64,000 nt of DNA from Actinomycetota bacterium. GTDB taxonomy: Bacteria; Actinomycetota; Acidimicrobiia; Acidimicrobiales; VFJN01. The position numbers and the translations under genes were made by a program. Location: contig JBMOLI010000006.1 in NCBI GenBank assembly GCA_049325515.1, forward strand, positions 29,328 through 93,327. The letters run 5' to 3'. Numbering within the stretch: position 1 is the stretch's first letter; each line of letters opens with the position of its first letter. Positions 1-52,638 of the stretch are shown one piece after another. The notes beneath the pieces were generated by a model. It saw only the letters and a program-made list of their open reading frames with translations, made no database searches and had not been told where the DNA came from.

Positions 1-627
1 TACGGCATGCGTGAGTACGTACGAGGTGACGATCTCCGCCGCATCGTCTGGCGAGCTTCAGCGCGCACCGGGAAGATCATGGTCCGCGAGGCGGAGCAGG
101 GGATCACCGATCACATCACGATCATCCTCGACACCGATCGTGGCACCCACAGCAACGACGGAGACGGCCTGTCGGAGTCGTTCGAGACGGGTGTGCGCGT
201 CGCCGCGTCGCTCGCCGTCCGTCACCTGCGAGAGGGCTACGAGATCAAGGTCGAGACAAATGGTGGGCCGCTCACCCGCCATCTGCGGGGAGCGACGAGC
301 CAGATGCAGATGCTGGACAGCCTCGCCAAGGTCGACCTCGACCGCGAGCCGCTCAGCAAGGCGATCATGAAGCTGCTGAGCTCGGCCCAGCGCGACGCCC
401 ACAACATCCTGATCACGCCCTTCCTCGGCCAGCGCGAGGCGGCTCAGCTCCGCATGCTCCTGAACACTGGCGTCTCGGTCCTGGTGGTTGCGCTTCTCTG
501 GGACGAGGACAACGCCAACACGATGGGTCTGGCGGCCTCGATGGGCTGTCAGGTCGTGGGTGTTCACCCAGGCCAGGACCTGGCCACCGCACTGTTCAGC
601 GACATCGGCGCCGGGAACCGGGTCTGA
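1..627 (+). CDS. DUF58 domain protein (MoxR-associated, vWA-like), 5' end outside window
   Basis: REYVRGDDLRRIVWRASAR...MVRE is the DUF58 signature; frame is open from base 1; stop overlaps next ATG (TGATG). Confidence 0.9.
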   Translation, partial: YGMREYVRGDDLRRIVWRASARTGKIMVREAEQGITDHITIILDTDRGTHSNDGDGLSESFETGVRVAASLAVRHLREGYEIKVETNGGPLTRHLRGATSQMQMLDSLAKVDLDREPLSKAIMKLLSSAQRDAHNILITPFLGQREAAQLRMLLNTGVSVLVVALLWDEDNANTMGLAASMGCQVVGVHPGQDLATALFSDIGAGNRV

Positions 628-3074
628 TGGGCCCCACCGACCTCGACAGCGACCTGACCCTGCTCGAAGAGCGGGCGCTCGACCATCTCGAGGCTGACTC
701 GCACGGCGCATCGGATCTCGACGCCGCCGTCGACGGGTCTGAAGATGCCGATCTCGATCCGGAGATAGCCGCATCGCGCCTCGCGCTGGCGATGGCGTTC
801 CCGGTGCTCGGCGCGGCGGTGATGGTCGGTGGGGTGTTCAGCGGAGTGTCGGCGCGGCCTCTCGCCGCTCTGGCCGGCCTGCTCGGCATGGGCCTCGCCC
901 TCGTCGCCCGACGGGTGCGCAAGCCGCTGCTCGGCAACGCCATGATCGCGGTGGGCCTCTTCTTGATCGGGCTCGTGCTCGTCGGCACCTCCGGCATCGG
1001 CAACATCGCCAACGCCCGCTCCCTGGCGCAAGAGGCGGCGGCGAGCGGAGACGTGCTGCGCCCGCCGGTCGAGCTCACTGCGGGGTGGCACGCGATCGTC
1101 GGCTGGCTGATGGGCATCGTCGGCTTCGTCACCTGCTGGGTGGCGACGGTGGTGCGACGTCAGAGCATCGCTCTGCTCGTGCCGTTGCCGTTCGCAGCCA
1201 TCGCAGGAATCTCGGTCCCCGAGACCGCGCAGGTCCCAGGCGGGATCGCCGTGCTGGTGCTGTTCGCGATCGGGCTCGGCCTCGTGTCGAGCGCCAACTC
1301 CTTCGAAGGCAGCCAGCGCCCGCCGCTTTCCTACGAGATCCGCAAGACGGCCAAGAGCCTGCCGGTCATCGCGCTCATCACGGTCGCGCTGATCGCGCTG
1401 GCCCAGACCAGCTTCCTCTTCCCCGACCCGCAGATCGACCCTGCGCAGGAACCGCAGAAGCCGAAGACGGTTCCCCTCGAGGAGGTCGAGGATCGCGTCC
1501 TGTTCGAGGTCACCGACCCCAGCGGCGGCGACCCGGTGAGCGGCCCGTTCAGGCTTGGCACGCTCGACGTCTACGACGGCACCGACTGGCGCCTGCCCGC
1601 CTTCAGCGAGAACGAGCTCGAGGACGTTCCAACGAACGGTCACGTCGATGACGAGCTCTTCGGCACACGCGACACGCAGGCGCGCTTCCGAGTGCAGGGT
1701 CTCGGGGGCACGGTGCTACCGGGCCTACCGAACACGGTCGGCATCAACGCGCAAGGTCCGCAGCTCGCCTACGACTCGCGCAGCGGCAACATCCGCGTCG
1801 CCTCCGGGCAGGTGAAGGTGGGCCTGACATACGAGGTTGCGGCGGCGGCGCGCTTCACGGAGGACGAGCTCCGGGCCAGCACCGGGAAGGTGCCGCGCGA
1901 GGTCGAGCGCTTCCTCGAGATCCCCGCCCCACCCCCTGCTGTCGTGACCTTGGTCGACGACGCTGTCTCGAGGTTCGACAACGGCTTCGACCGCTTCAAC
2001 TTCCTGCGCAACCATGTGCTCGACGAAGTGACCGCCTCCGGGCTCGGCACGCCGGTCAGCATCACCCCGGAGCGCGCACAGGAGATCCTCGGGGACACCC
2101 TCGAGGCCACGCCGTATGAGATCGTCGCACTCCAGGCGATGCTGGCACGGTGGGTGGGGCTGCCCGGCCGCATCGGCTACGGCTTCGACTGCGGCGGCAC
2201 TGCCTGCGACCTGAACGGCAAGACGCTCGAGGTGCGCCCGCGCAACGGCGCCGCCTTTCCCGAGGTGTACTTCCCGGGGTTCAAGTGGGTGCCCGTCATC
2301 GGCCAGCCGAAGAAGGCCAAGCCCACGGTCGGCACCGACCCGAGCCTCCAGAGCGTCGACCCCAGCATCCTGCCCAGCGACGACATCGCGGTGAGCTTCC
2401 TGCTCCCCAAGCTGGTGCCACCGCCCAGCACGCTCACAGACCAGATCCGCCTGAGCCTGCTGATCGCGCTCGGGATCGGGCTGATCGGGGGAGCGGGCTA
2501 CGTGGCTGCACCTGCGGTTCGCAAGGGCATCATCAGGTCGCGTCGCCGTGCGGCGGCTCGCCAGGCAGGACCCCGAGCACGGGTCGCGCTCGCCTACGCC
2601 GAGTGGCGTGACCACGCCACCGACTACGGCTATCGCCACCCGACCGACACGCCCCTCATGTTCCTCGAGCGATTCATCGACGACCCCGAGCACAATGAGC
2701 TTGCCTGGCTCACCACCCGGGCTCTCTGGGGGGACCTGCGCGACGAGTGCGACGACGAGGTGGCCGGGGCGGCCGAGGAGTTGTCACGCGCACTGCGCCG
2801 GCGTCTTTCGCAGGCGCAGCCGGCGACTCTGCGCTTCGTGGCGACTGTCTCACGCCTGTCGCTGAGGTCGCCCTTCGCGCCGGACACCGACCTCACCTCC
2901 GGGCGACGCCGCACCGGTGCCTCCAGGGCCTCTCGCTCGTCTCGCGCCTCTCGCGACCGAGTGCTCGAGGGAGCCCCGGCCCTTCGCAGCGACCGGGTGC
3001 TCGCCGCCGCGGATGCGGGCCAGCCAGATGGATCGATCGGAAAGGAGCGGGAGCATGTCTCGACATCGCTCTAG
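627..3074 (+). CDS. Membrane protein with transglutaminase-like domain (TgpA/DUF3488-like), catalytic residues degenerate
   Basis: About 8 N-terminal TM segments; LDVYDGTDW; MLARWVGLPGRIGYGF and PEVYFPGFKWVP transglutaminase-core segments; follows DUF58 as in MoxR-DUF58-TGase operons. Confidence 0.8.
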   Translation: MGPTDLDSDLTLLEERALDHLEADSHGASDLDAAVDGSEDADLDPEIAASRLALAMAFPVLGAAVMVGGVFSGVSARPLAALAGLLGMGLALVARRVRKPLLGNAMIAVGLFLIGLVLVGTSGIGNIANARSLAQEAAASGDVLRPPVELTAGWHAIVGWLMGIVGFVTCWVATVVRRQSIALLVPLPFAAIAGISVPETAQVPGGIAVLVLFAIGLGLVSSANSFEGSQRPPLSYEIRKTAKSLPVIALITVALIALAQTSFLFPDPQIDPAQEPQKPKTVPLEEVEDRVLFEVTDPSGGDPVSGPFRLGTLDVYDGTDWRLPAFSENELEDVPTNGHVDDELFGTRDTQARFRVQGLGGTVLPGLPNTVGINAQGPQLAYDSRSGNIRVASGQVKVGLTYEVAAAARFTEDELRASTGKVPREVERFLEIPAPPPAVVTLVDDAVSRFDNGFDRFNFLRNHVLDEVTASGLGTPVSITPERAQEILGDTLEATPYEIVALQAMLARWVGLPGRIGYGFDCGGTACDLNGKTLEVRPRNGAAFPEVYFPGFKWVPVIGQPKKAKPTVGTDPSLQSVDPSILPSDDIAVSFLLPKLVPPPSTLTDQIRLSLLIALGIGLIGGAGYVAAPAVRKGIIRSRRRAAARQAGPRARVALAYAEWRDHATDYGYRHPTDTPLMFLERFIDDPEHNELAWLTTRALWGDLRDECDDEVAGAAEELSRALRRRLSQAQPATLRFVATVSRLSLRSPFAPDTDLTSGRRRTGASRASRSSRASRDRVLEGAPALRSDRVLAAADAGQPDGSIGKEREHVSTSL

Positions 3075-4113
3075 GGCCCTGCTCGCCGTTGTCCTCGCCG
3101 CCGTCGTGTCTGCGTGCGTGTCCCCGGGTGAGCCCGGCGTGAACGTGGACACCGTCCAGGCAGACATCGTCTTCGGGGTCGAGCAACCACCGGTTGGCGA
3201 GGTTCCGCCGCCCACCGCCACGGGCGGCCCGCCATCCAACGGTGGTCTCGCGCCCGAGCTGCGCGTTCCCTTCTTCAACCGGGTCGGCAGCCGCTTCAGC
3301 AACGTGCAGTACACCGTGCCGTCCTCCGACGCTGACTGCCCCACCGCGTCGCCAACGGAGGCACCCGACGTTGTCGCACCGGACAACGCGTCAGAGCCTC
3401 CCGCCGCCGGCCTCTACGTGTGGCAGCGGAGCGGAGAGCAGACCGTCGTCGTCGAAGGTGCCAGCTACAAGAGCACGATCAGCGGGTACGAGAACCGCCT
3501 CGTACGTGCGGTCGACAAGATCAGTGAGACGCGCTGGACCTTCGAGCTGGTCCAGCCTGATCTGAGTGGCGCCACCCTGGTGACGACCTATGCGGTCAAC
3601 ACCGACCCCACCGAGGTCGAGAACCCCACAACCGGGAACAGAGGTGTTGCGGCGCCCTACGTGGGGCAGACGACGCGGGCGGGCGAGCCGTTGCGCGGGC
3701 TCACGCTCGAACGCCAGGAGTACTACGACGGAAACGGGATCCTGGTTGGGGAGTTCGATCCGGCAGACCCGGTGCTATTGGCGCCGCTGCCCGTGCTGAG
3801 CGGCGAGACCTGGACATCGGTGGGCGTCGACCCGCGGTCCGGCCAGACCATCCGAGTCGACGGGATCATGTCTAGGCGCGAGTCGGTGGACGCCTGCGGG
3901 TCGCGGCTCGACGCATGGCTCTCCGACATGACCGTCACCTACTCGGGCGACTCCGAGACCGTCCGCCAGCTCGATCTGTACGTCAGCACCGAGCTGGGCG
4001 GGATGCCGATCGGAGAGCGCATCTCGGAGTCGTCGAACGACGGTGGGAAGCTCGACGCCTTCTTCGAGATCGGCCAGCGAGACCCTGACCCTGCGCCGGA
4101 GGAGGAGTCGTGA
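3055..4113 (+). CDS. Putative lipoprotein, unknown function
   Basis: RBS AAAGGAG before ATG 3055; signal peptide with lipobox VSAC; GTGA overlap with next gene. Confidence 0.75.
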   Translation: MSRHRSRALLAVVLAAVVSACVSPGEPGVNVDTVQADIVFGVEQPPVGEVPPPTATGGPPSNGGLAPELRVPFFNRVGSRFSNVQYTVPSSDADCPTASPTEAPDVVAPDNASEPPAAGLYVWQRSGEQTVVVEGASYKSTISGYENRLVRAVDKISETRWTFELVQPDLSGATLVTTYAVNTDPTEVENPTTGNRGVAAPYVGQTTRAGEPLRGLTLERQEYYDGNGILVGEFDPADPVLLAPLPVLSGETWTSVGVDPRSGQTIRVDGIMSRRESVDACGSRLDAWLSDMTVTYSGDSETVRQLDLYVSTELGGMPIGERISESSNDGGKLDAFFEIGQRDPDPAPEEES

Positions 4114-6374
4114 ACCTCCGTCGCCACCTTCCGGAGAACGCAACGGCGCGCTCGGCTCTGCTCGGAGCGATCTCGTTCGCCGCGCTGCTGCTCGTCACCC
4201 AGGTGGTCCTGCCTGGCTCGCCTGGCACAGCGGGCCGCGGCACCCCGCCCGGGATCCTCTTCGACGGGGTCGTGAGCGGGCTCGTCATCTCGCTGACCGC
4301 CGCCGGAGTGGTGCTCGTCTACCGCGCCATGAGGATCCTGAACTTCGCCCAGACCGCCCTCGGCGTGATGGGGGCGAACCTCATCTTCGGCCTCGTGCAG
4401 TTCACCGAGGTGCCGTTCCCGATCAGCATGGCGCTGGGGCTCGCGCTCGCCACCGCGATCGGCGCCGGCGCCGGACTGGTCACCCTCCGCTTCTTCCGCG
4501 CCTCCCGCCTCGTGCTCACAGTCGTGTCGATCGTGGCGGCCGGGTTCATCGTCAGCTTCTCCTACGAGATCTACAAGCTCCCGTTCTTCCCCGACTACGA
4601 CAGCCTCACAGCGGAACAGCAGACCGGCTCTGCCCCGATCCAGGAGATGCTGCCCTTCCCCGGCTGGCACTTCGATGTCGGCATCGTGCGCGACTTCGGG
4701 TTCGTTCACGTGTTCGCCATCGAGGCAGCGGTCATCTGCCTGCTCGGCCTCATGGCGTTCTTCCGCTACACGCGTGCGGGCGTCGCCGTGCGCGCCCTCG
4801 CCGAGAACCCCGAGCGCGCCTCGCTGCTCGGCATCGGCGTCGGAGGCCTCACGATCATCACCTGGGCGATAGCAGGGTTCTTGAGCGGCGTCAGCACGAG
4901 CTTGAACGGCATGCTCACCGTGCCCGCTGCGGCCGGCGGGTTTGCGCCATCGCTGCTCTTGGTCGCCTTCGCCGCCGCCGTGATCGGCCGCATGGAGAGC
5001 ATTCCGGTCACGGTGATGGCGGCTGTCGGCATAGCCACCCTCAACCGGGCCTTCACGTGGAGCTACCCCGGCGACCGAGGGCTAGTGCCGGTGATCCTCT
5101 TCTTCGTGCTCGGAGCGGCACTCCTGGTGCAGCGGAGCTCGATCAGCCGCGCCGAGTCATCTGCGGTCGGCTGGGCAGCCACGGAGGAGCAGCGGGCGAT
5201 CCCCAAGGTGCTCGCCGACCTCGGAGCCGTGCGCGGCGTCCGCTACGGCCTCTACCTGCTGGGCCTCATCGCCGTCACGGTGGTCCCCTTCGTCGGGTCG
5301 ACCGGTGTGGTCAACCTCTCCAGCGTCATCGCACTGAGCGCTGTGGTGGTGGTGTCGATCGTGGTGCTGACCGGCTGGGGCGGACAGGTCAGCCTCGGAC
5401 AGTGGGCCTTCGCGGCCGTCGGAGCCGTCGTGGCGGGTGCGCTGACAGCCACTGCTGGCCTCAGCTTCTGGCTGGCCGTACCCGCCGCCGCCGCCGTGTC
5501 GGGCGCGGTCGCGATTGCGGTTGGGCTGCCAGCGCTGCGCATCAAGGGTCTGTTCCTGCTCGTGATCACGATGTCGTTCGCGTTCGCGATCGAGAGCGCG
5601 CTCTTCCAGGATCGCTACTTCGGTTGGTTGCTGCCGGACAGCGCAATCGAGCGGCCCAGCCTGTTCTTCTTCGACTTCGTGGACGAGACGAGCATGTACT
5701 TCCTCTGCGTGGCGACGCTCGTGCTGTCGATCGTCATCGTGGGCAACCTGCGGAGATCGAGGACTGGTCGGATCCTCATCGCGCTCCGCGAGAACGACGC
5801 CAACGTGCAGTCCTTCGGGGTGGCAGTCCTTCGAACCAAGCTCGTCGCGTTCGCGATCTCCGGTGCGCTCGCAGGCATGGCGGGTGCGGTCTTCGTGCAC
5901 CAGCAACAAGGTCTCAACGTCCAGTCCTTCACGTCGCAGAAGAGCATCGATGCGTTCGTGACCGCCGTCTTCGGCGGCGTCGGATCGGTTGCCGGGGCGC
6001 TGCTCGGCGCGACGTACTTCGCTCTGGTGCGGTACTTCTTCAGCAGCGCCCTGTTCCTCGCTGTCGTGGTGAGCGGTGGCGCGCTCTACATCCTCATCGC
6101 TTTCCCAGGTGGCTTGATCTCCTTGCTCAACGCTGCGCGCGACTCGGTGCTCCGTGTCATCGCTCAGCGCCGACAGATCCCGGTGCCCAGCCTCTTCGCC
6201 GACTACGACGCCGAGGCGCTGGAGCGCAGGCTCATACCGCTGGCTGAGCCCGACACCGGCGCCGGCCTCGGCGCCCTGCCTCCCGGAGAGGGCTACGTGC
6301 TCGGGTCCGCTCTCTACCGCGGCCGCGGCCGGAGATTGGCTCCGAGCTCGCCCGCATCGAGGGAGGCCGGATGA
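4110..6374 (+). CDS. Fused double branched-chain-amino-acid-type ABC permease (LivH+LivM)
   Basis: LNFAQ and TRAGVAVRALAENPERASLLGI (LivH half); GQVSLGQ, PALRIKG, SRTGRILIALREND (LivM half). Confidence 0.9.
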   Translation: MNLRRHLPENATARSALLGAISFAALLLVTQVVLPGSPGTAGRGTPPGILFDGVVSGLVISLTAAGVVLVYRAMRILNFAQTALGVMGANLIFGLVQFTEVPFPISMALGLALATAIGAGAGLVTLRFFRASRLVLTVVSIVAAGFIVSFSYEIYKLPFFPDYDSLTAEQQTGSAPIQEMLPFPGWHFDVGIVRDFGFVHVFAIEAAVICLLGLMAFFRYTRAGVAVRALAENPERASLLGIGVGGLTIITWAIAGFLSGVSTSLNGMLTVPAAAGGFAPSLLLVAFAAAVIGRMESIPVTVMAAVGIATLNRAFTWSYPGDRGLVPVILFFVLGAALLVQRSSISRAESSAVGWAATEEQRAIPKVLADLGAVRGVRYGLYLLGLIAVTVVPFVGSTGVVNLSSVIALSAVVVVSIVVLTGWGGQVSLGQWAFAAVGAVVAGALTATAGLSFWLAVPAAAAVSGAVAIAVGLPALRIKGLFLLVITMSFAFAIESALFQDRYFGWLLPDSAIERPSLFFFDFVDETSMYFLCVATLVLSIVIVGNLRRSRTGRILIALRENDANVQSFGVAVLRTKLVAFAISGALAGMAGAVFVHQQQGLNVQSFTSQKSIDAFVTAVFGGVGSVAGALLGATYFALVRYFFSSALFLAVVVSGGALYILIAFPGGLISLLNAARDSVLRVIAQRRQIPVPSLFADYDAEALERRLIPLAEPDTGAGLGALPPGEGYVLGSALYRGRGRRLAPSSPASREAG

Positions 6375-9300
6375 GCGAGTCAGCCACCCCTGGAGGCCGG
6401 AGCTCCGGCCACGCGCGCCGAGCAGCGACGGCGCCGCCCGCCGCCACGAACGGTGCCCAAGCCACCAGTACCGCTCTGCTCGACCCGAGGCCGCGCAACG
6501 ACCGCGATCCAGTCGCGCCGAACGGAGATCACGCCGATCAGCCCGCGGCCGCCCGGCGGAGGCCGGGAGAGGGAAAGCCGACGCTGGCCGACGACGATCG
6601 TCCCGGTGGCTGGCGCGGGTTCATGTGGGATGTTCGCCAGTACCGAGTTGTGGCGGGCACTCACTACGGGCTGACCCCCTTGCTCGTGTTCGGGTTCATC
6701 GGCTTCTTCCAGCGCTTCGACTCCAGGGCCTTCTCGCTCGCCTCTCCGGACATCGCGCGGGATCTCAACATCAGCGTCGGCGACATCATCGGCATCCAAG
6801 CGCTGGTCGGCACCGTGGCGACCATCGCCCTGCTCTTTGCCGGCTACTACGCGGATCGGCATCGTCGCGTGCCGTTCGTGAGCATCGGGACGCTCATCTC
6901 GGGGTTCTTCTCAGCGGTCACCGGTCGAGCGCAGAGCTTCGCCGGTGCGGCCACACCGAGGGTTCTCGACGATGTAGCGGACGCTGCTTCGGGCGTACCC
7001 CAGTTCTCGCTGACCACCGACTACTACCCGCCGGCGGTGCGGGGCCGGGTGTTCGCGCTGCTCGGCATGTTCTCCAAGGTGGCGGAGCTGCTGTCGCCGG
7101 TGATAGTCGGCCTCTGCGTGGTCGGGCTGGGCTGGCGCACCTCGTTCCTCGTCTTTGCAGTGCCGCTGATGCTCCTGGGCGTCGCCGCCCACTTCCTGCT
7201 CAAGGAACCCATCCGGGGTTACCAAGAGCGCAAGGCGATGGGCGCAAGCGAGGAGGTGGCTCGCCAGGAGGAGGAGCCGCTCTCGTTCGCCGAGGGATGC
7301 CGAGCCACGTGGTCGGTCCGCACAGTCCGGCGCACGGTCGTAGCCGACGTGTTCACGTTCGGCGCCGACGCCATTCTCTCGCTGTACTTCGTGTTCTTCC
7401 TGGCGGAGGTCTACGGCCTCGACGCGCTGGAGCGCGGGATCGTCTTCCTCCCTGCCGTGGTGGCCCGCCTTGCCGGTGGGTTCATCGGCGGCGCGGTCGT
7501 CGATCGCCTCACCCGCCGCAACCCGAGCCGTGTGCTGCTCGTGCTGGGCGTCTACGGCCTCATGCTCGTCCCCGCTCCGCTCGTCTACCTGCTCCAGCCA
7601 CCGCTGTGGATCATCGTCGGCATCAGCCTGCTCACTGGCTTCGGCGGGTCACTGATCGGTCCCGCCACCCAGGTCGTCTACAGCCAGGTGATCCCGCCCG
7701 GCATCCGCACTCAGGGACTCAGCATCACCGCGCTCGCCGGGATCCCCACCACGGCCATGTTCATCCCGATCGCGCGCGGCGTCTTCTCGGAGTACGGCTA
7801 CGACGGGATCTGGGTGATGAGCATCCCCTTGGGAGTCGTCGGCGCTCTCATCTACCTCACCGCCGCCGGCTTCTTCGAGCTCGACATGCGCAACAACCTG
7901 GCTGCGTCGATGGCGGCCGAGGAGTGGCGCCGGACGCGCGCAGCGGGGAAGGGCAAGCTCCTCGTCTGCCGCAACATCGATGTCGCCTACGACGGCGTGC
8001 AGGTTCTCTTCGACGTCGACTTCGACGTGGACGACGGGGAGATCATTGCCCTCCTGGGCACCAACGGAGCCGGCAAGTCCACGCTCCTGCGTGCCATCAG
8101 CGGCATCCAAGAGGCGTCGAGCGGGGCCATCGTCTTCGACGGGCGCGACATCACGCACATGCCGCCCCACGAGACAGCAGGGCGTGGCGTCGTCCAGATG
8201 CCAGGTGGCAAGGGCGTGTTCCCGAACCTGTCCGTGAAGGAGAACCTCGTCCTCGGCAGCTGGATGAACGAGGATCAGGCCGACGTATCCGCACGACTGG
8301 CTGAGGTCTTCGAGATCTTCCCTGCGCTGCGTGACCGCATCGACACCCCAGCCGGGCAGCTCTCGGGCGGGGAGCAGCAGCAGCTCTCGCTCGCCCAGGC
8401 GTTCCTTTGCCGCCCCCGGTTGCTCCTGATCGATGAGCTCTCGCTCGGCCTCGCACCCACGGTGGTCGGGCAGCTCGTGGAGATCGTCAAGGAGATCAAC
8501 CGTCGAGGCGTCACCGTGATCGTGGTGGAGCAGTCCGTGAACGTAGCCCTCACGATCGCCACCAGAGCGGTCTTCATGGAAAAGGGCGAGGTCCGCTTCG
8601 ACGGTCCAGCTCAGGAGCTGCTCGCTCGTCCCGACATCCTCAGGGCCGTCTACGTGAAGGGCACCGGTGCGCTCACGGACGGTGTGCCAGCAGCAGCCCG
8701 GCGCGACGAGCGCCAGGTCAGGTCGCTCGGTCTGGCTGAGGCCCGGCCAGTGCTCGAGGTGAGCGGGCTGCTCAAGACATACGGCGGCATCACTGCGGTG
8801 GACGACGTGAGCTTCCAGCTCCGTGAGGGCGAAGTGCTCGGCCTGATCGGTCCCAACGGAGCGGGCAAGACGACGATCTTCGATCTGATCAGCGGCCACC
8901 AGCCCCTGGACGGCGGCCGGGTGGTCCTCGAGGGTGCCGATGTGACGAAGTGGGCCCCGGAGATGCGTGCGAGGGCCGGACTGGTCCGCCGCTTCCAAGA
9001 CGCCCGCCTCTTCCCCTCGCTCACGGTCTTCGAGACCCTGCTCGTCTCGCTCGAGCAACGACTCGAGGTGAAGAGCGCGTTCCTCAACGCAGTGGCTGCT
9101 CCCCAGGCTCGCAAGGCCGAGCGGCGCGTGAGAGCGAGGGCTGAAAAGCTCATCGAGCTGCTTGATCTGGACGCCTACCGGGACAAGTTCGTCAAGGAGC
9201 TCTCCACGGGCCTGCGTCGAATCGTCGATCTCGCCTGCGTCCTTGCCGCTGAGCCGAAGGTGCTGCTGCTCGATGAGCCTTCCTCCGGGATAGCGCAGGC

Positions 9301-9541
9301 GGAAGCGGAGGGTCTGGCACCCCTGCTCACCCGCGTGCGGTTCGAGACCGGCTGCAGCATCCTCATCATCGAGCACGACATGCCACTCATCTCGGCGGTG
9401 TCCGATGAGCTCATCGCGCTCGACCTCGGTGCGGTCGTCAGGCGAGGACGTCCAGAGGACGTCCTCGTGGACGAGCGCGTGGTCGAGTCGTACCTCGGCA
9501 CATCCGAAGCCGCCATCAACCGTTCCGGGAGCACGATCTGA
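6371..9541 (+). CDS. Fusion of an MFS domain and two ABC ATPases (LivF-like then LivG-like)
   Basis: About 12 TM with MFS loop motifs GYYADRHRR and GAVVDRLTRR, plus DYYPPAVRGR; GTNGAGKST/LSGGEQQ/LLLIDE; GPNGAGKTT/LSTG/LLLDEP/VVESYLG. Confidence 0.9.
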   Translation: MSESATPGGRSSGHARRAATAPPAATNGAQATSTALLDPRPRNDRDPVAPNGDHADQPAAARRRPGEGKPTLADDDRPGGWRGFMWDVRQYRVVAGTHYGLTPLLVFGFIGFFQRFDSRAFSLASPDIARDLNISVGDIIGIQALVGTVATIALLFAGYYADRHRRVPFVSIGTLISGFFSAVTGRAQSFAGAATPRVLDDVADAASGVPQFSLTTDYYPPAVRGRVFALLGMFSKVAELLSPVIVGLCVVGLGWRTSFLVFAVPLMLLGVAAHFLLKEPIRGYQERKAMGASEEVARQEEEPLSFAEGCRATWSVRTVRRTVVADVFTFGADAILSLYFVFFLAEVYGLDALERGIVFLPAVVARLAGGFIGGAVVDRLTRRNPSRVLLVLGVYGLMLVPAPLVYLLQPPLWIIVGISLLTGFGGSLIGPATQVVYSQVIPPGIRTQGLSITALAGIPTTAMFIPIARGVFSEYGYDGIWVMSIPLGVVGALIYLTAAGFFELDMRNNLAASMAAEEWRRTRAAGKGKLLVCRNIDVAYDGVQVLFDVDFDVDDGEIIALLGTNGAGKSTLLRAISGIQEASSGAIVFDGRDITHMPPHETAGRGVVQMPGGKGVFPNLSVKENLVLGSWMNEDQADVSARLAEVFEIFPALRDRIDTPAGQLSGGEQQQLSLAQAFLCRPRLLLIDELSLGLAPTVVGQLVEIVKEINRRGVTVIVVEQSVNVALTIATRAVFMEKGEVRFDGPAQELLARPDILRAVYVKGTGALTDGVPAAARRDERQVRSLGLAEARPVLEVSGLLKTYGGITAVDDVSFQLREGEVLGLIGPNGAGKTTIFDLISGHQPLDGGRVVLEGADVTKWAPEMRARAGLVRRFQDARLFPSLTVFETLLVSLEQRLEVKSAFLNAVAAPQARKAERRVRARAEKLIELLDLDAYRDKFVKELSTGLRRIVDLACVLAAEPKVLLLDEPSSGIAQAEAEGLAPLLTRVRFETGCSILIIEHDMPLISAVSDELIALDLGAVVRRGRPEDVLVDERVVESYLGTSEAAINRSGSTI

Positions 9542-10065
9542 TGTACTCAACCCGTCGCGCGCGCACCACCGCTCTCGCCCTTCTCCTGGCGCTCGCCCCG
9601 CTCGCTGCGTGCGGCGGCGAGGACAAGGTGGGCGACGACGACCTGCTGGCCTTCGACCAAGAGCAGGCGAACCAGCTCGGCGCCAGCAGCACCACCGAGA
9701 CCACCGCCAGCCCGATCGACGATGGTGGGGCTGAGACGACTGCGGCCCCGACCCAGACCACTGCGGCACCCCAGACCACGCTGCCACCCGAACAGCAGCA
9801 GGTCACCGTCGAGGTGGTGATCCAGGACGACGAACAAGGAGCGCCATTCACACCGAACGTCGTCCGCGTAGCAGTTGGCGGGCGGGTTCGCTTCCTGAAC
9901 AAGGGCACGCGCGCCTACTCGATCGTCGCTCAGAACGGAGCCTTCGCGTCACCGTCGATCGCGCCGGGTCAGGCATGGATCTACGAGGCGACCACACCCG
10001 GCAACTTCAACTACAGCGACGATGTGCGCACCTACAGCCAAGGCACCATCCAGGTGGTCGCTTGA
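9541..10065 (+). CDS. Lipoprotein with cupredoxin-like C-terminal domain lacking Cu ligands
   Basis: Lipobox LAAC; Thr-rich linker; FTPNVVRVAVGGRVRFLN...PGNFNY...GTIQV cupredoxin pattern. Confidence 0.75.
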   Translation: MYSTRRARTTALALLLALAPLAACGGEDKVGDDDLLAFDQEQANQLGASSTTETTASPIDDGGAETTAAPTQTTAAPQTTLPPEQQQVTVEVVIQDDEQGAPFTPNVVRVAVGGRVRFLNKGTRAYSIVAQNGAFASPSIAPGQAWIYEATTPGNFNYSDDVRTYSQGTIQVVA

Positions 10066-10577
10066 GCTCCCTGCACCTGCTGCGTTGCCTTGTTGCTGTC
10101 GTCACCGTCGTCGGTGTTACGGCGTGCGGTGAGGAAGACCCGGCCACCAGGGCCGCCTCCGAGCGCGTCATCGTGCCTCTCGAAGCCTCGCCAGTCCCGC
10201 CGACGCTCAACGGCCTGAAGGTCGCCGAGGAGGACATCGCCGACGTGCTGGAGGGAGCTGACCGGCCATATCTCGAGGCCGCCACGCTCTACAGCCTGCG
10301 CGAGGGCGAAGCCCTTCAGGCCACGCTCCAGGTCGGCCGCTTCGCCGCCGACGCCAAGTTCGCCGACCCGGACTTCCGCAGCTCGCTCGTGAACCGCATC
10401 GGCAACGGCGGCGCCAACGACTTCCGGATGGGTGACGACACCGTCTGGCTCACTGCCGGCGACCGCCAGTCCATCGCTGTCTGGTTCAACGAGGACCACA
10501 TCTTCGTGCTCTCAGCCCGTGAGGAGTACCCGGGCGCCCGGGCGCTGCTGCGCGAGGCCTTGGGGATCGAGCCGTGA
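10062..10577 (+). CDS. Putative lipoprotein
   Basis: TTG start in TTGA overlap with upstream stop; lipobox VTAC. Confidence 0.65.
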   Translation: MSSLHLLRCLVAVVTVVGVTACGEEDPATRAASERVIVPLEASPVPPTLNGLKVAEEDIADVLEGADRPYLEAATLYSLREGEALQATLQVGRFAADAKFADPDFRSSLVNRIGNGGANDFRMGDDTVWLTAGDRQSIAVWFNEDHIFVLSAREEYPGARALLREALGIEP

Positions 10578-11722
10578 AGCGGACCAGGGCGTTCGCAGTC
10601 GCTCTCGCTGTGCTCCTGGCGCTGACGGCGTGCGGCAAGCAAGAGAAGGACAGCGAGGAGGTCCGGGAGTTCATCGATGCCAGTGACACCCTGGCGCGCC
10701 GCTTCGTCTACACGGAGGAGACGAAGGAGCGCACGATCGTCGTCCAGGGTCTCGTCGAGGACGACTTCCGCTACAAGACGAAGGTCGTTCAGGATGGCTC
10801 GGACGTCCTTGAAGCCGTGGTGAGCGACGACTCCGTCGCTGTGCGATTCCTCGACCCTGAGCTGATCGGCGCCTGGATGGACGAAGAGGTCGCCTCGGAG
10901 GTGGATCAGGCGACCGACCTGGAGGGCATCGGCGTCCTCGACGCTCTGCGCGCTCGTCGATGGGTGCTCGACGCCGGGGGAGCACCGCCAGTGGCTCGAA
11001 GCGCCGAGCAGCTGGAGACTCAGGGCGACGACCCTCTTCTCGATGCCCTGACCGCGCTCAGCTATGTGCGAGACATCGCCGAGGCCAAGGACCTCACCCC
11101 GATGATCAAGTACAACCCTGAGGCGATCTCGCCGACCTACCGGGCCGATGAGGACCCGTTCCCGGTGCCTGAGGAGGGCTCGGGTGTGGAGCGCTACGAC
11201 GTCTACCAGCCGAAGCTCCCGTCGGCCGCGCAAGCGACGTCCGGCTCCCAGGCGGTGCTCCCGAGTGCGCTCAACTTCAGGAAGCTGGCCGTCTACGTCA
11301 AGGACGGCAGGGTCATCCAGGTGAGCGAGCACATCGGGCTGACGCCGCGGCTGCTCGATGACCTCGGCAGCTACATGCTTCAGCTCATCGACACGACGGC
11401 GCCCGAGAACATCCGGCGCGACTTTCGCGCGAGGGTCGACCGCCTGCGCGGCGAAGAGCTGGGTGAGTTCCTTCTGCAGGGCCTGAACGCAATCATCGAG
11501 ATCGCCGGAGACGAGCCGATCCGCTTCCGGAGCATGACCCTCGAGCTGCGCGACCTGGGAGCCGACGACATCGACGTGGAGCTGCCGGGGGAGACCATCC
11601 GGGGCAGCCTCGCTGTGCTCAAGAACCTGGGTCGCAAGCCGTCGATCGATGACGACGCTCCTGCCACCGGCACAGGCCCGGGAACGGGCTCAGGCACGAC
11701 AACGACGCTCGTCGATGGCTGA
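10574..11722 (+). CDS. Putative lipoprotein
   Basis: GTGA overlap; MKRTRAFAVALAVLLALTAC lipoprotein signal. Confidence 0.75.
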   Translation: MKRTRAFAVALAVLLALTACGKQEKDSEEVREFIDASDTLARRFVYTEETKERTIVVQGLVEDDFRYKTKVVQDGSDVLEAVVSDDSVAVRFLDPELIGAWMDEEVASEVDQATDLEGIGVLDALRARRWVLDAGGAPPVARSAEQLETQGDDPLLDALTALSYVRDIAEAKDLTPMIKYNPEAISPTYRADEDPFPVPEEGSGVERYDVYQPKLPSAAQATSGSQAVLPSALNFRKLAVYVKDGRVIQVSEHIGLTPRLLDDLGSYMLQLIDTTAPENIRRDFRARVDRLRGEELGEFLLQGLNAIIEIAGDEPIRFRSMTLELRDLGADDIDVELPGETIRGSLAVLKNLGRKPSIDDDAPATGTGPGTGSGTTTTLVDG

Positions 11723-12254
11723 GCCGAGCCGCCTCGCCTGCGCAGCATCTGCCGCCCTCTCGGTGATGCTGCTCGTAGCCGCTTGCAGCGGCGGCGCTAC
11801 GTCATCCGGACCGACGACGGCCGTTCCGCTGGATGGCACGCCGAGGTATCCCGATGCTGAAGGGATCGTGGTCGACATCGCGGACGACTTCTCCACCATC
11901 ACCCTCGACGGCGACCGGACCTTCGAGATCAACGAGGACGTGCAGAGCTTCTCGACGGTCGACGGCTCGGTTCAGCAGCTGCTCCGCCGCAAGGGTCAGT
12001 ACGTGCAGGTCGGTCTGAAGGAAGGCTACGTCCGCTGGATAGCGGGGATCGCCGCAGTGGTCCGTGCTCCCGGCCAGCCGCCCGTCGTGTACTACTCGGG
12101 CAACCTCGTCGAGGTGCGCGGCGAGCACGCAGTGTTCGAGGACGGGACCGTGCTGACGCTCTCCGAGGAGCTCGATGCTCCTCCTACCGGTGCCCGGTAC
12201 ACCGCAACCATCAGCGCAGACGAGCACGTCGTGATCTCGCTCTCGCGGGCCTGA
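11715..12254 (+). CDS. Putative lipoprotein
   Basis: Overlaps upstream stop; lipobox VAAC; beta-rich body. Confidence 0.65.
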   Translation: MAEPSRLACAASAALSVMLLVAACSGGATSSGPTTAVPLDGTPRYPDAEGIVVDIADDFSTITLDGDRTFEINEDVQSFSTVDGSVQQLLRRKGQYVQVGLKEGYVRWIAGIAAVVRAPGQPPVVYYSGNLVEVRGEHAVFEDGTVLTLSEELDAPPTGARYTATISADEHVVISLSRA

Positions 12255-12673
12255 TGCCTCTCTGGGGGCGAACAGTGCTCAGGTCGGTCGTCGCTGGCCT
12301 GGTTACGTTCGGCGCGGTGTACCTCGGCGTCACCAGCATGCGCGGTGATCCAAAGGTCAGCACCGCTGAAGCCGATGAAGACGCCCTCGGCGTGGCCGAT
12401 GCGATCGCGATGGACCGAGGCTCGAGGGTCGCGGTGCGTGGGTTCGTGTTCATCGACGCGAACGTCGGGGAGCTGCTCTGCTCGGCTCGCCGCAACGACG
12501 ACCCCCCGACGTGTGACGGGGTTGCCCTGACCCTCATCAACCTCGACACGAACCGTCTCGACCTCGATGTGCCTGACGACACCGAGGGCAGCTACGACGC
12601 CTGGAGCCGCGACATCGTGACCCTGATCGGGCGAGCCGACCGAACGACGTTCGTGGTCGACGACATCCTCTAG
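12254..12673 (+). CDS. Membrane-anchored small protein, possibly OB-fold
   Basis: TGATG coupling; N-terminal TM; VAVRGFVF...LC...PPTC pattern. Confidence 0.65.
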   Translation: MPLWGRTVLRSVVAGLVTFGAVYLGVTSMRGDPKVSTAEADEDALGVADAIAMDRGSRVAVRGFVFIDANVGELLCSARRNDDPPTCDGVALTLINLDTNRLDLDVPDDTEGSYDAWSRDIVTLIGRADRTTFVVDDIL

Positions 12674-12736
12674 CAACCAACGTCTGTGAACCCCCGCGTC
12701 CGCATGTCGGCCGCCCGGGTTCACAGACGTTGGTTG
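12674..12736. repeat. 63-bp palindromic extragenic element, family A copy 1
   Basis: CAACCAACGTCTGTGAAC-N27-GTTCACAGACGTTGGTTG, directly after a TAG stop. Confidence 0.95.
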
Positions 12737-12817
12737 GTGGACTGGTGGCTGGCGAGATGGGCGGCCAGACTGACGCCCACGCCAGACAGGACCAGAACCC
12801 ATCGAGGAGGGGCTCGC

Positions 12818-17433: not shown

Positions 17434-17439
17434 CACCAC

Positions 17440-17495
17440 CAACCAACGTCTGTGAACCCCCATGGCCGGCATGCGGACGTACGGGTTCACAGACG
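17440..17495. repeat. Family A palindromic element copy 2 (right arm shortened)
   Basis: CAACCAACGTCTGTGAAC-N27-GTTCACAGACG. Confidence 0.93.
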
Positions 17496-18368: not shown

Positions 18369-18381
18369 GGACGAGCGCAAC

Positions 18382-18444
18382 CAACCAACGTCTGTGAACC
18401 GCCACGGCCGCCATGCGGACGCAGGTGTTCACAGACGTTGTTTG
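18382..18444. repeat. Family A palindromic element copy 3
   Basis: CAACCAACGTCTGTGAAC-N27-GTTCACAGACGTTGTTTG between convergent genes. Confidence 0.95.
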
Positions 18445-20277: not shown

Positions 20278-20324
20278 ACCCCCATGGCCGCATACCGGCC
20301 AACCGAGTTCACAGACCTTGGTTG
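20262..20324. repeat. Family A palindromic element copy 4; overlaps the 3' ends of both convergent genes
   Basis: CAACCAACATCTGTGAAC-N27-GTTCACAGACCTTGGTTG. Confidence 0.93.
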
Positions 20325-46494: not shown

Positions 46495-46556
46495 CAACCA
46501 ACGTCTGTGAACCCCGGCGGCCGCATGGCGGACGCGGCGGTTCACAGACGTGGTGG
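46495..46556. repeat. Family A palindromic element copy 6
   Basis: CAACCAACGTCTGTGAAC-N27-GTTCACAGACGTGGTGG. Confidence 0.93.
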
Positions 46557-46957: not shown

Positions 46958-47012
46958 CAACCAACGTCTGTGAACCCTGACGGCCGCATGGCGGACATGG
47001 GGGTTCACAGAC
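46958..47012. repeat. Family A palindromic element copy 7
   Basis: CAACCAACGTCTGTGAAC-N27-GTTCACAGAC. Confidence 0.93.
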
Positions 47013-52575: not shown

Positions 52576-52638
52576 CAACCAACGTCTGTGAACCCTGGCG
52601 GCCGCATGGCGGACGTGGCGGTTCACAGACGTTGGTTG
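52576..52638. repeat. Family A palindromic element copy 8
   Basis: CAACCAACGTCTGTGAAC-N27-GTTCACAGACGTTGGTTG, directly abutting the MaoC TAG. Confidence 0.95.

Follow-up and report, generated by a model that had tools for sequence, protein, structure and literature searches.

A conserved gene cluster joining a MoxR/DUF58/TgpA-like module to a fused ABC/MFS transporter and lipoproteins suggests an undescribed envelope transport machine in Acidimicrobiales

ABC transporters of the LivHMGF/LivJK type (HAAT; TC 3.A.1.4), among them the urea transporter UrtABCDE, are binding-protein-dependent importers in their characterised members. The PFNA cluster of bifidobacteria comprises pkb2, fn3, a gene for a MoxR-type AAA ATPase, duf58 and tgm. 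In this actinobacterial cluster a surface protein accompanies the MoxR-DUF58-transglutaminase triad (PMC8430577, PMC6803598). The operon PA2875-PA2874-tgpA of Pseudomonas aeruginosa, a MoxR-DUF58/vWA-TgpA arrangement, is co-transcribed, and its TgpA is essential and possesses a periplasmic domain with transglutaminase activity (PMC3507681). In the scheme proposed for MoxR-vWA-TGL operons, substrates brought in by the vWA protein are unfolded by MoxR and then cut by the transglutaminase-like domain (PMC3495828). For LivK-type binding proteins of Rhodopseudomonas palustris, the ligands bound were mostly fatty, dicarboxylic and aromatic acids instead of Leu, Ile or Val (PMC3223731). Finally, LprG and the MFS transporter Rv1410 are encoded by a two-gene operon and are reported to act jointly in the transport of triacylglyceride and lipoarabinomannan to the outer envelope (PMC6519032, PMC4709180, 10.1101/2023.01.25.525346).

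Here we describe a gene cluster at the start of a window of 64,000 nucleotides (contig JBMOLI010000006.1, positions 29,328 to 93,327) from a genome of the order Acidimicrobiales. The cluster matches the P. aeruginosa operon in three gene families, their order, their common direction and their tight spacing, but none of the sequences examined retains the catalytic transglutaminase residues, and the triad sits inside an operon that also encodes an ABC transporter and lipoproteins. With LivHMGF-type importers it shares two BPD_transp_2 permease halves, LivF/UrtE-like and LivG/UrtD-like nucleotide-binding domains (NBDs) and a cognate binding-protein-like gene. It differs from them in that H and M form a single protein, a 12-helix MFS domain precedes F and G in another fusion, the binding protein (sbp621) is about 600 aa long, TM-anchored and too divergent for any Pfam model, and genes for MoxR, DUF58, a TgpA-like protein and lipoproteins are added. 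The partners of the PFNA triad are a kinase and an FN3 protein, whereas here they are a transporter and lipoproteins. As with LprG-Rv1410 (P55) and LppX of mycobacteria and LolA/LolB of diderms, a half-barrel lipobox lipoprotein is encoded beside an MFS transporter domain, although this lipoprotein has a helical insertion additional to the LprG/LppX fold and the MFS domain is fused to ABC NBDs. This likeness may be one of functional analogy, in which a hydrophobic ligand would be shuttled between the membrane and the outer envelope. To our knowledge, Acidimicrobiales have no mycolic-acid outer membrane. A literature search found no description of this system and, in sources including the available portions of PMC3495828 and PMC3507681, no link of a MoxR-DUF58-TgpA triad to an ABC transporter operon.

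As the original prediction had described, ten plus-strand genes overlap or abut throughout and end at a palindrome, each junction being read in the sequence. They encode the C-terminal 208 codons of a DUF58 protein (1..627; PF01882, 54.4 bits), a TgpA-like membrane protein of 815 aa (627..3074), lipoprotein 3 (352 aa; 3055..4113), a fused LivH+LivM-type ABC permease (754 aa; 4110..6374), a fusion of an MFS domain with a LivF-like and a LivG-like NBD (1056 aa; 6371..9541), lipoproteins 6 (174 aa; 9541..10065), 7 (171 aa, TTG start; 10062..10577), 8 (382 aa; 10574..11722) and 9 (179 aa; 11715..12254), and a TM-anchored protein of 139 aa (12254..12673). Start and stop codons overlap at nine junctions, reading TGATG at 627, 9541 and 12254, GTGA at 4110 and 10574, ATGA at 6371 and TTGA at 10062, with longer overlaps of 20 nt at 3055-3074 and 8 nt at 11715-11722. 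Five lipoproteins had been claimed and five lipoboxes were found, VSAC, LAAC, VTAC, LTAC and VAAC in lipoproteins 3, 6, 7, 8 and 9, respectively; nearly all orthologue N-termini likewise contain a Cys-containing lipobox.

The window start falls within a conserved system of about 13 genes arranged in two divergent arms, the SBP-like gene and a gene for a 316-aa protein running one way, and moxR through the gene for the small anchored protein running the other. The complete DUF58 gene (450 aa; G000:C6:28602-29954, plus strand; 51.7 bits for the full gene) encodes a protein with a predicted N-terminal TM hairpin of two helices at residues 65-92, and is preceded, outside the window, by the moxR gene that had been expected there (about C6:27575-28576, plus strand; AAA_3, 202.9 bits). 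Divergent from moxR on the minus strand, 1.9 kb upstream of the window start, lies the gene for sbp621, a TM-anchored protein of 621 aa (C6:25518-27383), and on the same strand that for the secreted, C-terminally anchored 316-aa protein (C6:24571-25521). The sbp621 protein itself had no sequence match in Pfam or the PDB, and a Peripla_BP_6 search of the genome gave 18 matches, none of them on contig C6. It is homologous (hhalign probability 100, E 5.7e-65, 543 columns) to a family whose members are encoded next to each of the seven paralogous transporters in the genome. Members of that family reach 39.1 bits against Peripla_BP_6 (cut-off 31.7 bits), and in the genome search the sites adjoining the C4 and C8 transporters scored 57.1 and 40 bits. 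By this chain of homology, sbp621 is the putative cognate binding-protein-like component. The claim that no binding protein is visible thus holds literally for the window but not for the system, since the transporter does have a binding-protein-like component encoded upstream.

The TgpA-like protein (TgpA_N 40.3 bits, Transglut_core 26 bits) is predicted to contain seven N-terminal TM helices (52-265), a transglutaminase-like domain without catalytic residues (266-608), and a single TM helix (609-627) followed by a conserved basic tail (628-815). TM prediction and the positive-inside rule would place the transglutaminase-like domain outside the cytoplasm and the tail within it. The domain had been called dead, and in 45 of 45 aligned TgpA-like sequences, the window's included, the catalytic Cys is indeed Pro and the catalytic His is Ala, Ser or Val. 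The Pro-for-Cys variant is present in every transporter-associated locus. The other TgpA of the same genome retains both Cys and His, matches PDB 6g49 and has no adjacent transporter. Catalysis by the window's domain was considered and is ruled out by these replacements; with its catalytic residues lost, the TgpA-like protein is a putative inactive scaffold. The broader proposal that several enzyme folds of the cluster act as scaffolds applies to two proteins, this one and the cupredoxin-like lipoprotein 6, whose mature form contains 0 His and 0 Cys.

The permease (BPD_transp_2, 180 bits over two stretches) matches LivM, LivH and UrtB/C models, all below their equivalog cut-offs. In the fusion protein (MFS_1 124 bits, ABC_tran 210 bits) the MFS domain occupies residues from about 100-500, the LivF-like NBD about 530-760 and the LivG-like NBD about 790-1050. 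The NBDs score 315 bits with UrtE (above the 285.8 cut-off) and 301 bits with LivG, and both possess Walker A, signature and Walker B motifs. In a PDB search the nearest solved relative of the MFS part was the Spinster homologue 6e8j (E 1.3e-9) and the nearest mycobacterial transporter was EfpA (E 0.0018); no specific similarity to Rv1410 was found. Seven paralogous LivHM/LivFG loci of the same genome occur without the MoxR module, and four of these are MFS-LivFG. Thus the fusion is linked to the module here but represents a lineage-wide transporter type, common without it, for which the module is not needed as such. In an NBD tree, 53 module-associated transporters are separated from 23 plain or MFS-less ones by a branch with a support of 99. 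Since the associated transporters lie on one side of this single branch, the three gene orders in which they are found appear to be rearrangements of one ancestral association and not independent recruitments.

These three gene orders all unite genes for the SBP, MoxR, DUF58, the TgpA-like protein, lipoprotein 3, LivHM, MFS-LivF-LivG and lipoprotein 7, and they extend over 16 GTDB families of Acidimicrobiales and into families outside the order. The window's order is found in 20 of 20 loci around lipoprotein-8 homologues, from 14 GTDB families (19 of them show moxR and 18 the SBP-like gene, the misses being contig ends), and three more orthologous loci agree with it; all such counts include related genomes, which are not independent samples. 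The second order, livHM, mfsFG, moxR, duf58, tgpA and lipoproteins 3 and 7 (6 loci within Acidimicrobiales, 3 outside), is simpler and keeps only these two lipoproteins; lipoprotein 8 is missing from it and is therefore not a core part. The third places an inverted SBP gene between moxR and duf58 (5 loci, all outside Acidimicrobiales). In two of the three orders the transporter genes lie between lipoproteins 3 and 7, and lipoprotein identity across linked loci falls to 23-30%. The co-occurrence anticipated by the original prediction held across genomes: MFS-LivFG is adjacent in 41 of 44 TgpA-like loci, with two cut by contig ends and one lacking a transporter. In a single sample of 401 Acidimicrobiales genomes, 36 have lipoprotein 8 and 40 the TgpA-like protein, and all 36 genomes with the former also have the latter. 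Locus L146 has a truncated DUF58 gene, the TgpA-like gene and lipoprotein 3, with no moxR or transporter match in 17.5 kb, and locus L136 has no moxR or SBP match within 6 kb upstream of its DUF58 gene. The thiolase gene that follows the operon in the window had no match in 23 of 23 loci, and no conserved metabolic neighbour naming a substrate was found among the loci compared (23 searched for thiolase). The joining of the two modules, as first proposed, has persisted across three gene orders and despite deep divergence; these comparisons of gene content strongly support the view that the MoxR/DUF58/TgpA module, the fused ABC/MFS transporter and the lipoproteins form one conserved unit.

Structure modelling, which the original prediction had recommended for the lipoproteins, covered two of them. 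Lipoprotein 8 is modelled as a half-barrel of the LppX/LprG/LolA type into which a helical hairpin is inserted (AF2, pLDDT 88.6), matching LolA 2w7q (Foldseek E 1.1e-4) and, with VIA, LprF 4qa8 (Z 10.8), LprG 3mh9 (Z 10.6) and LppX 2byo (Z 10.5) at 8-16% identity; it has no Pfam match, and so no sequence-level membership in the LprG/LppX/LolA families. Lipoprotein 3, without a Pfam match, is modelled with a disordered linker and, at residues about 100-345, an all-beta YmcC-like barrel (AF2, pLDDT 77), which resembles 4fvs (Foldseek E 8.6e-4; VIA Z 9.1, rmsd 4.0 over 182 residues). Both proteins thus model with lipid-carrier-like folds, but VIA Z values of 9-11 exceed only by a moderate margin the background of 7-8 that the aligner states, and likeness of fold does not reveal function. 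The lipoprotein 3 gene accompanies the TgpA-like gene in three of three gene orders, and its family numbers 984 representatives at E<=0.001. Hints of a hydrophobic ligand come from the folds of lipoproteins 8 and 3, the Spinster-like MFS domain and the ligands of R. palustris LivK-type proteins. Lipoprotein 7, a core member in all three orders, has no Pfam or NCBIfam match; its Atlas neighbours include DUF4367 and PknH_C-like rows (leads only), the remainder being without names. Lipoprotein 6 combines a Thr/Ala/Pro-rich linker with a cupredoxin-like C-terminal domain (Cupredoxin_1 22.1 bits, below the 27-bit cut-off), and 5 of 12 orthologues scanned gave similar sub-threshold matches. Lipoprotein 9 may contain small DUF5666/DUF1344-like beta-barrels, a lead only (best Atlas score 0.87; DUF1344 19.4 bits in one orthologue, below the 23.1-bit cut-off). 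The 139-aa protein has an N-terminal TM helix without a lipobox and is weakly conserved (tblastn match in 4 of 20 type A loci).

We favour, with a probability of about 0.5, the reading that the cluster encodes one envelope transport system whose core is a LivHMGF (HAAT)-type binding-protein-dependent ABC transporter, probably for a hydrophobic substrate. In this reading a MoxR AAA+ ATPase, a membrane-anchored DUF58 (vWA-like) protein and a dead TgpA-like scaffold would be permanent partners of the core. Outside the membrane, the lipoproteins and the dead transglutaminase ectodomain would bind a compound of hydrophobic or amphipathic nature and hand it on to the binding protein and the LivHM channel, with uptake powered by the two NBDs; the fused Spinster-like MFS domain could offer another route, either for this compound or for one moving the opposite way. 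On the cytoplasmic side, MoxR and DUF58 would engage the conserved tail of the TgpA-like protein and so assemble or remodel the scaffold outside. The earlier picture of one cell-surface import or assembly machine stands as regards conserved linkage; from there we infer a single physical complex, the direction of transport (import versus assembly), the substrate class and the role of MoxR.

The same components could operate outward, a possible but doubtful alternative in which the MFS and/or ABC part would draw a lipid, lipoglycan or lipoprotein of the envelope out of the membrane. Delivery of this cargo to the wall by lipoprotein 8 and other lipoproteins, as in LprG-Rv1410, with the MoxR module assembling the outer part, is similarly tentative. 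The ABC part is of a type whose characterised members are importers, the cluster retains a cognate binding-protein-like gene across loci, lipoprotein 8 is not core and is absent from the second gene order, and the MFS domain, for which EfpA was the nearest mycobacterial transporter in the PDB search, lacks specific similarity to Rv1410. Outward transport draws its support from the fold of lipoprotein 8, closest to LprF, LprG and LppX, from the nearness of the MFS domain to a Spinster homologue, from five lipoproteins and an extracytoplasmic scaffold that fit an assembly role, and from the LprG-Rv1410 precedent (PMC6519032, PMC4709180, 10.1101/2023.01.25.525346). It is unlikely that there are instead two independent systems, a MoxR-DUF58-TgpA-like module with its own lipoproteins and an ordinary nutrient ABC importer, which are neighbours by descent only. 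The association is apparently of single origin, so that shared ancestry explains part of the synteny, and MoxR-DUF58(-TgpA) loci without a transporter (contigs C41 and C19), the seven module-free transporter loci and the transporter-free L146 all fit separate systems. Linkage has nevertheless been kept through three gene orders, 16 families and beyond, and lipoprotein divergence to 23-30% identity; transporter genes are interleaved with the module, between lipoproteins 3 and 7 in two orders and, as the SBP gene, between moxR and DUF58 in the third; the distribution is concordant in 36 of 36 genomes; and the Pro-for-Cys replacement accompanies the transporter at every associated locus, whereas the transporter-free TgpA of the genome keeps its Cys. 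Very improbable, in our view, is membrane-proximal protein degradation or quality control acting on the transporter, although this role has been predicted in print for the common three-gene operon (PMC3495828) and the same three genes occur here in the same order. With Cys and His replaced in 45 of 45 sequences, cleavage by the transglutaminase-like domain is excluded, and inactive versions are expected only to bind peptides (PMC3495828). The domain would moreover lie across the membrane from MoxR by the positive-inside rule, and that of P. aeruginosa TgpA is described as periplasmic (PMC3507681).

The palindrome at the operon end (12675..12741; 20-nt perfect arms, predicted fold -55.9 kcal/mol) belongs to a repeat of about 63 bp that recurs across the genome, with 77 sites in the 3.9-Mb genome and 7 in the window, and is not specific to this operon. 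A further copy lies just beyond the other end of the cluster (G000:C6:24501-24563).

The first 12,673 nt of the window are part of a larger gene cluster that continues upstream, and the two portions together form one conserved gene set with what is probably a complete binding-protein-type ABC transporter. All ten plus-strand genes described in the original prediction are present, and the nine junctions at which neighbouring genes were said to overlap or abut all read that way in the sequence. Five of the ten encoded proteins possess a lipobox (lipoproteins 3, 6, 7, 8 and 9, numbered by gene order), and the tenth, tm10 (139 aa), has an N-terminal transmembrane helix alone. The window corresponds to positions 29328-93327 of contig C6 of its genome (G000:C6:29328-93327), and the rest of the DUF58 gene lies upstream of it together with a gene for a MoxR ATPase. 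The moxR gene had been expected there, and its product matches AAA_3 at 202.9 bits and AAA_lid_2 at 72.7 bits, retains a Walker A (GTGKS) and a Walker B (ILLADE) motif, and probably begins at residue 90 of the longest open frame. A gene on the other strand, starting 191 bp from the moxR start, encodes a 621-aa binding-protein-like product with one N-terminal transmembrane helix (sbp621), and the gene after it encodes sec316, a 316-aa protein that has a signal peptide and is anchored at its C-terminus.

The palindrome at which the operon was thought to end is real (12675-12741), and it is not specific to the operon, being one of 77 copies of a repeat of ~63 bp with 20-nt arms that is distributed over 18 contigs of the 3.9-Mb genome. 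Seven copies lie in the window (12674-12742, 17436-17495, 18380-18440, 20262-20327, 46495-46551, 46958-47012 and 52576-52638), and both ends of the cluster are flanked by the repeat, one copy being located just past the far, sec316 end. The element resembles intergenic repeats of the REP or MITE type. Promoter and terminator scans gave no excess over shuffled controls, and the divergent promoter region with its surroundings gave nothing in Rfam at E<=1, so that no riboswitch names a ligand for the transporter. Beyond the operon, window positions 12686-14017 encode a thiolase (acetyl-CoA C-acetyltransferase, 689 bits), whose start is probably the ATG at 12819, preceded by GGAGG, rather than the GTG at 12686, since the alignment to family models begins at residue 45 and the palindromic repeat lies within the first 130 bases. 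No conserved metabolic neighbour emerged from the thiolase query, which gave no match in the 23 loci searched with it.

No binding protein had been seen for the transporter within the window; a candidate is the divergent sbp621, encoded outside it. Searches of Pfam, NCBIfam and PDB sequences returned no match to this protein, and its 17 orthologues are likewise without a Pfam match. Over its full length, even so, it is homologous to a family of transmembrane-anchored proteins of 560-617 aa (by tblastn at E 1e-19 to 1e-21, and by hhalign with a probability of 100 and E 5.7e-65 across 543 columns), members of which adjoin all seven other LivHM/LivFG loci of the genome. Within this family Peripla_BP_6 is matched above its cut-off by one member (39.1 bits), another reaching 27.8 bits, and the Peripla_BP_6 scores beside the transporters of contigs C4 and C8 are 57.1 and 40 bits. 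A profile of the paralogous family searched against the PDB found chance-level or low-complexity matches only. The homology of sbp621 to proteins encoded beside other transporters, together with these Peripla_BP_6 scores, therefore points to a cognate, very divergent binding protein for the cluster transporter. Some orthologous clusters carry two such genes (L069:4-1251 and 2306-4186; L078:2-1762 and 1895-3697; L023:8805-10610 and 11666-13462), and in two of these three sec316 lies between the copies. About 5 kb past the sec316 end of the cluster, a minus-strand gene (L001:3098-5494, equivalent to G000:C6:17425-19821) encodes an MMPL-family transporter (266 bits); MMPL proteins are lipid exporters in mycobacteria.

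The permease of the transporter, LivHM, is a single 754-aa protein that matches PF02653 (BPD_transp_2) in two stretches (180 bits) and scores 83 bits with LivM and 36 bits with LivH, both far under the equivalog cut-offs; its search against PDB sequences yielded chance-level or low-complexity matches only. Its partner is a 1056-aa fusion of an MFS domain with two nucleotide-binding domains (NBDs), one LivF/UrtE-like and one LivG/UrtD-like, both with Walker A, signature and Walker B motifs. The NBD portion scores 315.5 bits with UrtE (cut-off 285.8), 301.5 bits with LivG and 257 bits with LivF. UrtE is the sole equivalog whose cut-off is passed, UrtB, UrtC and UrtD remaining under theirs. The MFS portion shows the family features of an MFS_1 domain (124.1 bits against a cut-off of 33.4) and about 12 helices, and reaches no NCBIfam subfamily cut-off (best 79 bits against 395). 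Its nearest PDB entry is 6e8j (E 1.3e-9, the second best being 3.2e-6), which is HnSPNS, a bacterial homologue of Spinster with a cavity that, as described, would suit an acidic hydrophobic small molecule (PMC10243590). In public data, fused MFS-ABC proteins occur in 111 clusters bearing automatic names only, all with MFS_1 and ABC_tran; the organism, wherever named, is a MAG or metagenome, and one is labelled Candidatus Dormibacteria.

The genes between moxR and the transporter complete a MoxR-DUF58-TgpA triad. The DUF58 gene begins 25 nt after moxR, and its stop overlaps the start of the tgpA-like gene. Its full product matches PF01882 at 51.7 bits (cut-off 23.4; 54 bits for the part in the window) and has a predicted transmembrane hairpin. 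The DxSxS MIDAS motif is missing from this protein and from both other DUF58 paralogues of the genome, and we therefore dropped its absence as a special feature of the cluster. The TgpA-like protein has eight predicted transmembrane helices and matches TgpA_N (40.3 bits, cut-off 30) and, weakly, Transglut_core (26 bits, cut-off 23). Its transglutaminase-like domain had been called dead, and an alignment referenced to the active-looking TgpA of the same genome bears this out: in 45 of 45 aligned sequences Pro stands in for the catalytic Cys, an Ala, Ser or Val takes the place of the His, and a non-acidic residue occupies the third position. The reference paralogue, on contig C41, keeps the Cys and His and matches PDB 6g49 (E 2.7e-21). 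Predicted topology and the positive-inside rule would give the transglutaminase-like domain an extracytoplasmic position and leave a conserved basic tail in the cytoplasm. A predicted complex of this ectodomain (residues 268-606) with lipoprotein 3 (residues 22-352), the one pair tried, with both partners entered as alignments, scored 0.01 against a mark of 0.32 and weighs neither way.

The linkage of the triad to the transporter is maintained over a wide range of genomes. Among 40 relatives, a transporter more than 60% identical occurs in four (G022, G026, G029 and G036), the rest having paralogues of 42-46% identity; the window order is repeated in G022, G026 and G029 as far as the contigs extend, and the G036 matches fall on separate short contigs. 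Among 401 sampled genomes of the order, lipoprotein 8 is present in 36, representing 22 of 216 genera, and a TgpA-like gene (E<=1e-40) in 40, including all 36 with lipoprotein 8. In 20 fetched loci from 14 families, scored by tblastn at E<=1e-4, the genes for the TgpA-like protein, lipoprotein 3, LivHM, the MFS fusion, lipoprotein 7 and lipoprotein 8 are present in window order in every case. moxR was found in 19 and the binding-protein-like gene, divergent from moxR, in 18, the misses falling at contig ends; lipoprotein 6 is present in 18, lipoprotein 9 in 16, sec316 in nine and tm10 in four. Lipoprotein identities in the fetched loci are 26-54%, and the families of the window genome and of G029 bring to 16 the family codes in which the arrangement is represented. 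The 29 named contigs retrieved with the lipoprotein 8 profile are all from MAGs, labelled mostly Acidimicrobiales, Acidimicrobiia, Actinomycetota or Actinomycetes, with one each of Acidimicrobiaceae, Microthrixaceae and Burkholderiales.

More divergent loci reveal two further gene orders. Weaker TgpA-like matches (33-45% identity) led to ten additional loci, of which two are window-like, two lie on contigs that are too short, and six have the order livHM, MFS fusion, moxR, duf58 and tgpA-like gene, followed by genes resembling those for lipoproteins 3 and 7; a binding-protein-like gene is nearby in one of the six. Across the phylum, the lipoprotein 3 profile matched 21 of 401 sampled genomes, including the unpublished G502, and the matches are distributed over families f97 (9 of 10 genomes), f99 (6 of 21), f96 (2 of 19) and three others. 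In a 200-genome sample of the class it matched only the genome studied here and G077. The matching phylum families probably belong to another class, as they are labelled only as sharing the phylum and are missing from the families listed for the class sample. Of 13 loci fetched from these families, three have the window order (one, L136, with no moxR or binding-protein match nearby), five carry an inverted binding-protein gene that separates moxR from duf58, and three are transporter-first. The other two are L146, with a truncated DUF58, a TgpA-like gene and lipoprotein 3 and neither transporter nor moxR in 17.5 kb, and L148, with a weak lipoprotein 3-like match only and no TgpA-like gene. In total, the MFS-LivFG gene adjoins the TgpA-like gene at 41 of 44 loci, two of the remainder being cut by contig ends and one lacking it, and the predicted co-occurrence of the fusion with the triad is thus upheld. 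Some genomes (G173, G174, G029, G082, G200, G284, G043 and G044) carry two clusters, typically one in window order and one transporter-first (e.g., L114 and L115).

One alternative explanation for these several gene orders is that different transporters recruited the triad independently. In a FastTree phylogeny of the two NBDs (76 rows, after removal of 10 duplicate rows), a single branch with a support of 99 separates the 53 triad-associated transporters from 20 plain paralogues (MFS-LivFG transporters without the triad) and three MFS-less transporters. The full-length tree, in which the plain paralogues stand beside the transporter-first group, is compatible with the NBD tree, neither being reliably rooted. 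This one-branch grouping led us to reject independent recruitment; it argues that the association arose once and was kept through later rearrangements of gene order.

The lipoproteins hint at what the cluster might handle. Lipoprotein 8 has a lipobox (LTAC, residues 17-20) whose Cys20 is invariant in 21 sequences, and its AF2 model (pLDDT 88.6) is predicted to be an unclosed beta half-barrel with helices forming a cavity, of the LppX/LprA/LprF/LprG type. VIA aligned 164-166 residues of this model at an rmsd of 4.0-4.3 with LprF (4qa8, Z 10.8), LprG (3mh9, Z 10.6) and LppX (2byo, Z 10.5), and Foldseek returned LolA, RseB, LprG and LppX (best E 1.1e-4), with a probability of 1.00 to LolA and LprG. 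By sequence, lipoprotein 8 matches no Pfam family at E<=0.01 and so has no membership in the LppX/LprG family; a profile of 21 orthologues, searched against the PDB, retrieved no chain of LppX or LprG at E<=10. The AF2 model of lipoprotein 3 (pLDDT 77, good from residue 100) resembles YmcC-like lipoproteins (Foldseek E 8.6e-4, VIA Z 9.1), with DUF1849, LolA and LmcA ranking below these in VIA, and its profile gave chance-level or low-complexity PDB matches only. The proposed fold check thus points to carrier-type folds in the predicted models of these two, and for lipoproteins 7 and 9 there are leads only. Lipoprotein 6 scores 19-25 bits with Cupredoxin_1, always under the 27-bit cut-off, in the window protein and five of 12 orthologues scanned. 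The mature window protein contains no His and no Cys, hence no His/Cys/His/Met copper ligands; the 12 orthologues have 0-4 His, with Cys in only one. In Pfam and NCBIfam, lipoproteins 3, 7, 8 and 9, tm10, sec316 and sbp621 gave sub-threshold rows at most. Lipoprotein 3 is, moreover, matched by 984 cluster representatives at E<=0.001, 410 of them at E<=1e-30, among 1.84 billion.

The cluster thus combines ATPases with their motifs present, lipoprotein models with carrier-type folds, and an inactive transglutaminase-like domain predicted to be extracytoplasmic. The boldest reading, whose probability we put at roughly one in four, is a hitherto unrecognised kind of monoderm envelope machine. In it a cytoplasmic MoxR/vWA pair would act through a dead, membrane-spanning transglutaminase scaffold to drive a chain of lipid-carrier-like lipoproteins outside the cell, which would hand over to, or receive from, an ABC transporter that depends on a binding protein and contains a Spinster-like MFS domain as its own lipid channel. 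On our main reading, the cluster proteins would assemble into one complex, MoxR and DUF58 would assemble or remodel the scaffold from inside, and the lipoproteins and the dead transglutaminase-like domain would bind and hand on a hydrophobic or amphipathic compound. The main rival reverses the flow and gives the cluster an outward role like that reported for LprG-Rv1410. Within the main reading we favour transport inward, because characterised LivHMGF-type systems are importers and the putative binding protein is conserved. In R. palustris the ligands of LivK-type binding proteins were mostly fatty, dicarboxylic and aromatic acids (PMC3223731), so that this transporter type is compatible with a hydrophobic substrate. 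If the envelope-machine reading is true, the cluster would be a functional counterpart, in Acidimicrobiales and related Actinomycetota, of Mce, Lol and LprG-Rv1410 lipid trafficking, and would provide the first concrete client for the widespread MoxR-DUF58-TgpA triad.

Two known systems meet in this cluster. With the LivHMGF (HAAT) importers it shares two permease domains and LivF-like and LivG-like NBDs with their motifs. With the MoxR-vWA/DUF58-TgpA system, which is very common in prokaryotes, it shares a MoxR ATPase, an adjoining DUF58 protein and a polytopic TgpA_N protein, and differs in the loss of the catalytic triad. In published analyses, the MoxR-DUF58-TgpA triad is predicted to be a membrane-proximal degradation system, in which inactive domains are expected only to bind peptides (PMC3495828), and the co-transcribed P. 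aeruginosa triad includes an essential, active periplasmic transglutaminase whose activity is unexplained (PMC3507681). Full-text searches found no description of a link between the triad and an ABC transporter or of this cluster. What appears to be new, on sequence grounds, is the conserved coupling of an inactive form of the triad to a HAAT-type transporter and lipoproteins. Gene linkage here gives the triad a defined client in an ABC transporter accompanied by a putative binding protein and lipoproteins, and the persistence of that linkage across three gene orders and deep divergence makes the role of the triad a testable question. The cluster may also be a case in which a transglutaminase-like ectodomain can act without catalysis. 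It unites several protein families without a Pfam model, lipoprotein 3 among them, and points to an unstudied route by which the organisms of the MAGs concerned, Acidimicrobiales and related Actinomycetota, would move compounds, probably hydrophobic ones, through their envelope.

Within its own genome, the cluster is one of eight loci with a fused LivHM, an unstudied type of transporter architecture whose expansion is specific to the lineage. The partner is an MFS-LivF-LivG fusion at five (contigs C6, C18, C13, C1 and C22) and a LivF-LivG fusion without the MFS domain at three (C4, C8 and C25); MoxR, DUF58 and TgpA accompany LivHM at the C6 locus only. The two other DUF58 loci of the genome (C41 and C19) adjoin no such transporter, and neither the five lipoproteins nor tm10 has a paralogue in the genome at E<=1e-3. 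Each of the eight loci has, besides the LivF-LivG fusion, a gene for a transmembrane-anchored, binding-protein-like product of 560-621 aa, most of which escape Pfam. The seven paralogous loci, on C18, C13, C1, C22, C4, C8 and C25, were fetched as L026-L032. At the last of these (L032:8425-12360, minus strand), one 1311-aa frame seems to join LivH, LivM, LivF and LivG, and would, as assembled, represent a whole ABC transporter in one polypeptide.
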